Assembly: GCF_003334335.1 (NCBI RefSeq)
Contig: NZ_QOWQ01000132.1
Direction: 5' to 3' (one strand)
DNA from: Escherichia coli
Lineage (GTDB): Bacteria; Pseudomonadota; Gammaproteobacteria; Enterobacterales; Enterobacteriaceae
DNA length: 998 nt
A program made the translations under genes and the position numbers. The notes beneath the pieces are model-generated. The model had not been told where the DNA came from and searched no databases. It saw only the letters and a list, made by a program, of their open reading frames with translations. This document shows positions 246-321 of the stretch, piece after piece; the stretch's first letter is position 1; every line of letters starts with the position of its first letter.

Positions 246-251
246 AATTTG

Positions 252-257
252 CTCCTT
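252..257 (-). promoter_or_regulatory. Shine-Dalgarno (AAGGAG) for the DUF932 gene
   Basis: Minus-strand sequence is TAAGGAGCAAATTATG: a near-consensus ribosome-binding site 6 nt upstream of the ATG at 245..243. Confidence 0.8.
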
Positions 258-282
258 ATCGGTGGTTAAGATTTACTGGTGT

Positions 283-321
283 AATAAATGAAAAAGCCAC
301 GTCTCCCGGAGAAGACGCGGC
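283..321 (-). terminator. Intrinsic (Rho-independent) terminator-like hairpin plus U-tract, minus strand (T2)
   Basis: Minus-strand RNA: 5'-GCCGCGUCU-[UCUCCGGG]-AGACGUGGC-UUUUUCAUUUAUU-3'. Stem arms are 321..313 and 304..296 (9 bp, GC-rich, one G.U wobble); the 8-nt loop is 312..305; the U-rich tract is 295..283. On the plus strand the same stem carries an A.C mismatch and has no downstream U-tract, so it is orientation-specific to the minus strand. Confidence 0.6.

Follow-up and report, generated by a model that had tools for sequence, protein, structure and literature searches.

A conserved terminator-like hairpin upstream of the DUF932 gene in enterobacterial genomic islands

The DUF932 gene of an Ag43-type genomic island in Escherichia coli is preceded by a terminator-like hairpin, here called T2, and hairpins of the same type stand before DUF932 genes in many genera of Enterobacterales. 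T2 appears to be the first conserved element of a mobile module that comprises DUF932, antirestriction, RadC, DUF987, and YeeU/CbtA genes. We consider it probable that T2 is a Rho-independent terminator acting as an inter-cistronic or leader attenuator, with DUF932 expressed by read-through and the module insulated from the cargo upstream of it.

The window and its genomic island

The window is the whole 998-nt stretch of E. coli DNA that was analyzed. E. coli strain cq9 carries identical DNA within its Ag43 (CP4-44-like) island, and the gene names IrmA, DUF905, and DUF932 are taken from the RefSeq annotation of this identical DNA. All three genes lie on the minus strand, and the features referred to below are as follows.

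657..998, minus strand: 3' part of an IrmA-family gene, with the stop codon at 659-657; the coding sequence extends past the window edge (RefSeq annotation of identical DNA and ORF list).
604..632, minus strand: stem of T1, a 12-bp hairpin after irmA found by the terminator scan, with a U tract at 603-594 and the Shine-Dalgarno sequence AGGAG at 592-588.
345..578, minus strand: DUF905-family gene of 77 amino acids, with the ATG at 578 and the stop codon at 347-345 (RefSeq annotation of identical DNA; phrog_8779).
294..323, minus strand: T2 stem-loop, with the 5' arm at 323-311 (AGGCCGCGUCUUC), the loop UCCG at 310-307, and the 3' arm at 306-294 (GGAGACGUGGCUU).
283..295, minus strand: U-rich tract of T2 (UUUUUCAUUUAUU), the first two U of which are able to pair with the stem base.
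271..289, minus strand: weak 7-bp A/U mini-hairpin between T2 and the Shine-Dalgarno sequence, seen in folds.
252..257, minus strand: Shine-Dalgarno sequence AAGGAG, 6 nt 5' of the DUF932 ATG; AAGGA or AGGAG is kept among loci.
1..245, minus strand: 5' part of the DUF932 gene, with the ATG at 245-243; the full protein has 272 amino acids (phrog_12094, E 8.5e-129).

The Ag43 island reads in a single direction in the order GTPase (YeeP-like), agn43, YeeR-like protein, IrmA, DUF905, DUF932, antirestriction, YeeS/RadC, YeeT, YeeU, CbtA, and YeeW. Of 5426 complete E. coli genomes, 4448 contain a match to the window; the median is three copies, and several paralogous ones are usual. NCBIfam yielded no family assignment for the DUF932, DUF905, and antirestriction proteins, and matches in PHROGs were only to families of unknown function. 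In the literature on yfjQ and DUF932 we found neither a study of the regulation of the DUF932 gene nor a description of the T2 hairpin.

Anatomy and stability of T2

The T2 stem is GC-rich and has 12 to 13 pairs, counting the G.U and A-U pairs near the bottom, so that the 9 bp given in the original prediction fall short of the actual stem. The U tract (295-283) agrees with the earlier placement of the end of the hairpin at about 283, some 37 nt before the ATG at 245; from the end of the stem to this ATG the distance is 48 nt, and from the end of the U tract it is 37 nt. The strong ribosome-binding site that had been ascribed to DUF932 is found as AAGGAG at 257-252. The 48 nt between hairpin and ATG are the longest such distance of all loci because the window carries the mini-hairpin insertion at 289-271. 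This mini-hairpin is a lineage-specific insertion (in the window, E. albertii, and CFT073) and is absent from most loci. On the upstream side, the DUF905 stop codon (347-345) is separated from the T2 stem by 21 nt, and T2 is thus also placed where a terminator of DUF905 would be expected.

Folded alone, T2 has a free energy of -22.1 kcal/mol, compared with -8.9 ± 2.4 kcal/mol for shuffled sequences (z = -5.57; 0 of 200 shuffles as stable), and it is retained in the minimum free energy and centroid structures of both 99-nt and 216-nt folds. The 216-nt fold of the window contained no structure competing with T2. A terminator scan ranked T2 first in the window, where it found five terminator-like sites versus 1.1 ± 1.1 in shuffled sequences; the U tract UUUUUCAUUUAUU passes the criterion of the scan and is interrupted after five U. 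The fold energy, the z score, and the top rank in the scan bear out the presence of a terminator-like hairpin near the DUF932 start. T2 combines a stable GC-rich stem-loop, a U tract on the coding strand, and compensatory changes, as is characteristic of intrinsic terminators, and in every feature that can be tested on sequence it fits the definition of a Rho-independent terminator.

Conservation and covariation of the hairpin

We compared 80 DUF932 loci obtained from a scan of one genome per species, in which the proteins are 71% to 98% identical to the DUF932 protein of the window. The loci come from Escherichia, Enterobacter, Citrobacter, Klebsiella, Salmonella, Yersinia, Serratia, Hafnia, Edwardsiella, Photorhabdus, Xenorhabdus, Pantoea, Erwinia, and other genera. 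A stable hairpin with a T-rich tail precedes DUF932 in about 76 of the 80 loci (median -21 kcal/mol), and the stem ends 23 to 48 nt (median 32) before the ATG in the homologous loci. The exceptions are L078, which has no hairpin, L035, in which the hairpin lacks a T tract, and L016 and L054, in which it is weak. Hairpins are present before K-12 yfjQ and yafZ too. Two loci carry unexpected taxonomic labels: L003 is from a metagenome-assembled genome labelled Bacillota and L061 from an assembly labelled Chryseobacterium sp., and both are typical enterobacterial DUF932 islands. The L003 protein is 94% identical to E. coli DUF932, and L061 is nearly identical to the Citrobacter locus L026, suggesting that these assemblies are mis-binned or contaminated.

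Covariation was assessed in a sequence-only MAFFT alignment of 72 sequences, with 500 shuffles and slid pairing partners as controls. In the T2 helix 87.9% of cells are paired, compared with 70.7 ± 0.8% after shuffling and 37% to 52% with slid partners. Double changes occur at 11 of the 12 pairs, amounting to 165 double-change cells versus 57 ± 7 in shuffles. Pairing, double-change count, and covariation score were matched by none of the 500 shuffles, and every slid control scored lower. The same helix was predicted independently by RNAalifold. The conservation with compensatory changes across homologous islands that had been proposed as a check on the hairpin was therefore found (87.9% paired; double changes at 11/12 pairs). 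Since the stem sequences diverge and the pairing is kept, selection acts on the RNA structure of T2 and not on its DNA sequence.

UNCG tetraloops, which stabilize RNA, close 21 of the 63 distinct hairpins upstream of DUF932. As a separate observation, the anti-Shine-Dalgarno-like motifs CCUCC or CUCC are frequent in the 5' arm and loop (for example in L006, L011, L020, and L023, and at 313-309 in the window), and the 3' arms often contain GGAGG or GGGAG. Judged by eye, the CCUCC/CUCC pattern occurs in roughly half of the loci; the CCUCC/GGAGG pattern may simply come with C(UUCG)G loops, or it may hint at an interplay with the nearby Shine-Dalgarno sequence.

Linkage of the hairpin to the DUF932 module

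The gene 5' of DUF932 varies widely among the 80 loci. It encodes DUF905 in 13, a YfjP-type GTPase in 9, YfjT/YkfB in 9, and IrmA in 3, is an unknown or unrelated ORF in 41, and is absent or divergent in the remaining 5; the genes 3' of DUF932 are constant among loci. Pairs of loci with hairpins that are 93% to 100% identical, tails that are mostly 85% to 100% identical, and coding starts that are 73% to 96% identical have unrelated sequence directly 5' of the hairpin, as seen for L023 compared with L029, L076, and L080, for L011 compared with L068, and for L043 compared with L074. The homology between loci begins exactly at the 5' edge of the hairpin. In CFT073, DUF905 is reduced to a fragment and the T run of T1 is deleted, yet T2 persists undamaged, one of its G.U pairs having become G-C. 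The varied upstream genes, the point at which homology begins, and the CFT073 locus together indicate that the hairpin belongs to the DUF932 module and not to DUF905.

The same design before other island genes

The combination of hairpin, U tract, and Shine-Dalgarno sequence is not special to DUF932. A recurrent layout of the islands consists of a hairpin, a tract of the form T4-5 N T4, a Shine-Dalgarno sequence, and a start codon. It is found before DUF905 as T1 of the window (-21.2 kcal/mol, z = -7.2; stem end 25 nt before the DUF905 ATG), in K-12 ykfF, and in most other loci, and it precedes the GTPase gene in 20 of 40 loci. Where RadC directly follows DUF932, a hairpin, TTTTTGTTTT, and then AAGGA are present in 23 of 28 loci, with the ATG 22 to 23 nt from the stem. 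This arrangement of hairpin, TTTTTGTTTT, and AAGGA was seen where the antirestriction gene is absent (L012, L016, L023, L027-L029, L034, L037, and others), and DUF932 is thus flanked by terminator-like hairpins on both sides in such loci. Within the 80-locus set the layout was never found before yeeU, DUF987, or yfjR, and it was found before cbtA in 1 of 60 cases.

Across the 80 loci, terminator-like hairpins number 262 on the coding strand versus 73 on the other strand. Their distance to the next start codon preceded by a Shine-Dalgarno sequence is tight (interquartile range 23 to 38 nt), and their distance from the previous stop codon is loose (25 to 146 nt). Tandem upstream hairpins of the T2 type, each directly before a small ORF, occur in L075 (about 3700-3790) and L077 (about 3800-3870); the L075 example reads GAGCGGGC TTTTTGCTTTT AAGGAG. 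The tandem arrangement suggests cassette-like units of a hairpin and a gene.

Read-through as the predicted route to DUF932 expression

As the original prediction held, the gap between T2 and the DUF932 ATG lacks a convincing sigma-70 pair. No part of the window scored as a sigma-70-like promoter in a pattern scan. Across 78 loci the interval from the 3' arm to 20 nt before the ATG, considered for -35 and -10 hexamers spaced 16 to 18 nt apart whose transcript would still contain the Shine-Dalgarno sequence, reaches 8 of 12 sigma-70 consensus matches in a single locus, in a kind of scan that weak or non-sigma-70 sites escape. A sigma-54 promoter in the tail was considered and rejected by eye, the GG/GC spacing being wrong. 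In the RadC and L075 versions of the layout the U tract abuts the Shine-Dalgarno sequence, which physically leaves no space for a promoter. The two loci with a divergent upstream gene, L016 and L054, have good promoter-like sequences about 130 to 150 nt upstream, which would place the hairpin inside a leader there. Since no fitting promoter is seen and the hairpin goes with DUF932, read-through is the most economical route to DUF932 expression.

The mechanism that we propose would work as follows. RNA polymerase would enter from whatever lies upstream, which in the window may mean transcription begun at the irmA or agn43 promoter and continued through DUF905, and most polymerases would be released at the T2 hairpin and its U tract. 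The fraction that reads through would produce an mRNA in which the U/A-rich tail and the strong Shine-Dalgarno sequence directly follow the hairpin, and DUF932 would be translated from this mRNA, the 48 nt between stem and ATG presumably holding no promoter of its own. T2 would in this way insulate or attenuate the module against variable and sometimes strongly expressed upstream cargo, as one of several putative terminators between cistrons of the coding strand, the others standing before the GTPase gene, DUF905, and RadC. We infer that T2 terminates transcription in vivo, that partial read-through supplies the DUF932 mRNA, and that the hairpin has an insulating role.

It had been suggested earlier that either the DUF932 promoter overlaps T2 or the gene is expressed by regulated read-through, with T2 as a leader attenuator. 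The comparison favors read-through, with no promoter in the gap, and speaks against regulation in cis, as nothing upstream is conserved and no competing fold was found. A cis-encoded switch of the leader peptide or riboswitch type was rejected because the homology starts at the 5' base of the hairpin, the 216-nt fold offers no competing structure, and there is no Rfam match. The lack of conserved sequence 5' of the hairpin implies that there is neither an antiterminator nor a leader peptide, and regulated read-through would need a trans-acting factor. Melting of T2 by a ribosome stalled at the DUF905 stop codon was also rejected, as the position of this codon 21 nt from the stem appears too distant.

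Alternatively, T2 could be a plain 3' terminator of a DUF905 or irmA-DUF905 transcript, its closeness to the DUF932 start being incidental and DUF932 having its own unrecognized promoter overlapping or beside the hairpin. T2 does start 21 nt past the DUF905 stop, a normal position for a terminator, and weak or activator-dependent promoters escape consensus scans; AT-rich, H-NS-bound islands hold many non-canonical start sites. We regard this explanation as unlikely, however, because the hairpin remains in front of DUF932 even where another gene family lies upstream, where there is no upstream gene, or where that gene has decayed, and because the homology begins at its 5' edge. The tight distance to the ATG and the loose distance to the previous stop argue in the same direction, as do the single 8/12 promoter match in the permitted interval of 78 loci and the contact between U tract and Shine-Dalgarno sequence in the RadC and L075 versions.

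Expression data and related terminators

Published expression data bear on this model at several points. The hairpins of the paralogous yfjP-yfjQ and ykfA-yafZ gene pairs have no mapped 3' end in the K-12 Term-seq tables (Adams 2021), the islands being probably silent in the conditions used, and the TERMITe supplements have no entry for yfjP, yfjQ, ykfA, or yafZ. In an oxyR mutant agn43 is up 121-fold and irmA 12.9-fold (PMC4807369), a difference that fits stepwise attenuation along the transcript. RT-PCR in an EC958 oxyR strain gave no evidence for co-transcription beyond irmA (PMC4807369), which fits T1 as an effective terminator. If T1 is that tight, very little DUF932 mRNA would come from agn43 read-through, and another transcript source would be needed. 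In E. coli Nissle 1917, a DUF932 gene ('yfjQ') is among only four genes that rise when fluC is ON (PMC11056357). The published Nissle primers match the genes of the L001 island with 0 to 1 mismatch, and the CFT073 c1273 island has four mismatches to one yfjQ primer. This co-regulation of fluC and yfjQ is suggestive for putative neighbors and is not tied to one island.

A similar device occurs in the leader of agn43 itself. In a search of L001 8400-21400 against Rfam 15 with E values up to 1, the only match was the IS102 RNA (RF00124; L001 19168-18965, minus strand, 252 bits) at the agn43 leader; T2 matches no family, and its identity as a REP or known RNA family was accordingly rejected. Like T2, the IS102 leader has a strong hairpin and U tract in a 5' untranslated region, here ending 33 nt before the agn43 ATG, with a similar stem length and stability (-23.5 versus -22.1 kcal/mol). 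The two differ in that the IS102 leader has no sequence similarity to T2 and is a conserved RNA of roughly 200 nt with its own promoter directly upstream, whereas T2 has no conserved upstream RNA. The agn43 mRNA starts 228 nt 5' of its ATG (PMC4807369), and with the IS102 terminator 33 nt before the ATG it must read through this terminator. Ag43 is strongly expressed in phase-ON cells despite the leader terminator.

The rplL-rpoB attenuator and the rpsU-dnaG T1 terminator of E. coli are intra-operon intrinsic terminators that set relative expression. T2 resembles them in having a canonical hairpin and U tract between co-directional cistrons and a downstream gene that lacks its own promoter and is expressed from read-through, which for DUF932 is the predicted route. 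It differs from them in lying in a mobile island, in traveling with the downstream module across genera, and in occurring several times per island.

The hairpin marks the island lineage, not DUF932 genes as a whole. The homologue yubP of F-like plasmids (62% identity) is found in at least 5000 plasmids and lies in the leading region beside oriT. In the F-like plasmid pB18FEP-TC-CTX (L085 4890-5000) it adjoins yubQ and oriT/traM, with psiA nearby. The sequence upstream of yubP in L085 has an 8-bp stem with a 26-nt loop and no canonical terminator, and the idea that the hairpin accompanies every DUF932 gene was rejected on these grounds. The tail motif TTTTATGCC...AAGGAG is common to yubP and several island loci, and the DUF932 gene of the islands is the chromosomal counterpart of plasmid yubP.

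Antitermination, post-transcriptional roles, and DNA-level elements

Read-through might also be governed in trans, the hairpins being conditional terminators that are overridden by a processive antiterminator, so that the whole string of genes comes on jointly, as might happen upon transfer or induction; candidates are an AlpA-family protein or another regulator of the island, or a factor contributed by a helper phage or plasmid. Several co-directional terminators placed right before cistrons with no space for promoters form the layout of antitermination-controlled phage operons. A helix-turn-helix protein of 68 amino acids in L001 (23870-24076, minus strand) matches PDB 8c3t, 'AlpA family phage regulatory protein', at E 2.5e-4, and K-12 CP4-57 carries alpA. 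In Pseudomonas aeruginosa, AlpA is a proven antiterminator by which RNA polymerase bypasses a leader terminator (PMC7969949, PMC9371919). The alpBCDE operon of that species likewise has an intrinsic terminator between the transcription source and the first gene of a mobile-element-type operon (PMC7969949, PMC9371919), and AlpA-family genes are present in DUF932 islands. The dependence on AlpA belongs, however, to the P. aeruginosa system; the AlpA-like gene of the island is remote and does not obviously share a transcription unit with the module, being encoded in L001 some 11.6 kb further upstream, on the module's strand, with an opposite-strand gene between. In addition, the K-12 AlpA sequence matched no solved AlpA structure, and no loading site was identified. 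Control by RfaH was rejected, the ops element (GGCGGTAG...) occurring 25 times on the two strands of 744 kb of sequence, roughly as often as chance would predict, and with no consistent position.

Overriding of the terminators in trans is on this evidence quite unlikely. There is also little chance that the terminator-preceded GTPase, DUF905, DUF932, and RadC cistrons form a normally shut string that is opened as a unit by a dedicated processive antiterminator, whether this is a protein of the AlpA family encoded in the island or is brought in by a helper phage or plasmid. If they did, the antirestriction/RadC/DUF932 module would be licensed only at moments such as transfer or induction, with T2 as its gate.

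A role mainly after transcription, which we think improbable, would have T2 serve as a processed 5' stem-loop protecting the DUF932 mRNA or as a 3' stem-loop protecting the upstream mRNA, with the U/A-rich tail as an S1-binding translational enhancer beside the Shine-Dalgarno sequence. The close spacing of hairpin, U-rich tail, and Shine-Dalgarno sequence would suit such a role, the UNCG loops show selection for RNA stability, and 5' stem-loops and U-rich enhancers are established devices, as in the ompA 5' untranslated region. Stems with a T tract directly behind them, confined to the coding strand, are, however, the specific signature of termination, and stabilizer hairpins need no U tract; the strand bias (262 versus 73) also counts against this role. 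A post-transcriptional function is compatible with attenuation by T2 and does not exclude it.

A DNA-level element (a recombination or cassette junction, a single-strand transfer hairpin such as an ssi, a Frpo-like promoter, or an oriT-like site, or a protein operator) would account for the position of the hairpin at the exact boundary between variable and conserved DNA and recalls the DUF932 homologues that adjoin oriT in the leading region of F-like plasmids, but is very improbable given that pairing alone is kept and stem sequences are not, which argues against a sequence-specific protein site, that the G.U pairs and UNCG loops point to RNA, that the hairpin of 28 to 30 nt is far below Frpo-type length, and that the F-plasmid homologue lacks a T2-type hairpin. 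Frpo elements are hundreds of nucleotides long, with imperfect hairpins that carry -35 and -10 boxes in the stem and form promoters in single-stranded DNA; by this general definition of the family, an Frpo or ssi single-strand promoter was rejected, as T2 is a 30-nt perfect hairpin without promoter hexamers.

Implications for enterobacterial islands

Islands of the CP4-44, CP4-57, and CP4-6 type occur in most E. coli genomes and also across Enterobacterales, and their cargo includes antirestriction, RadC, DUF932, and CbtA/YeeU toxin-antitoxin genes. The position of T2 at the head of the DUF932 module provides a concrete, testable control point and a precise boundary of a recombining module. 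It also holds a caution for annotators, in that such hairpins are not automatically assignable to the upstream gene. A terminator of its own would explain how the DUF932 module escapes over-expression when very different and at times highly transcribed cargo, for instance phase-ON Ag43, lies in front of it.
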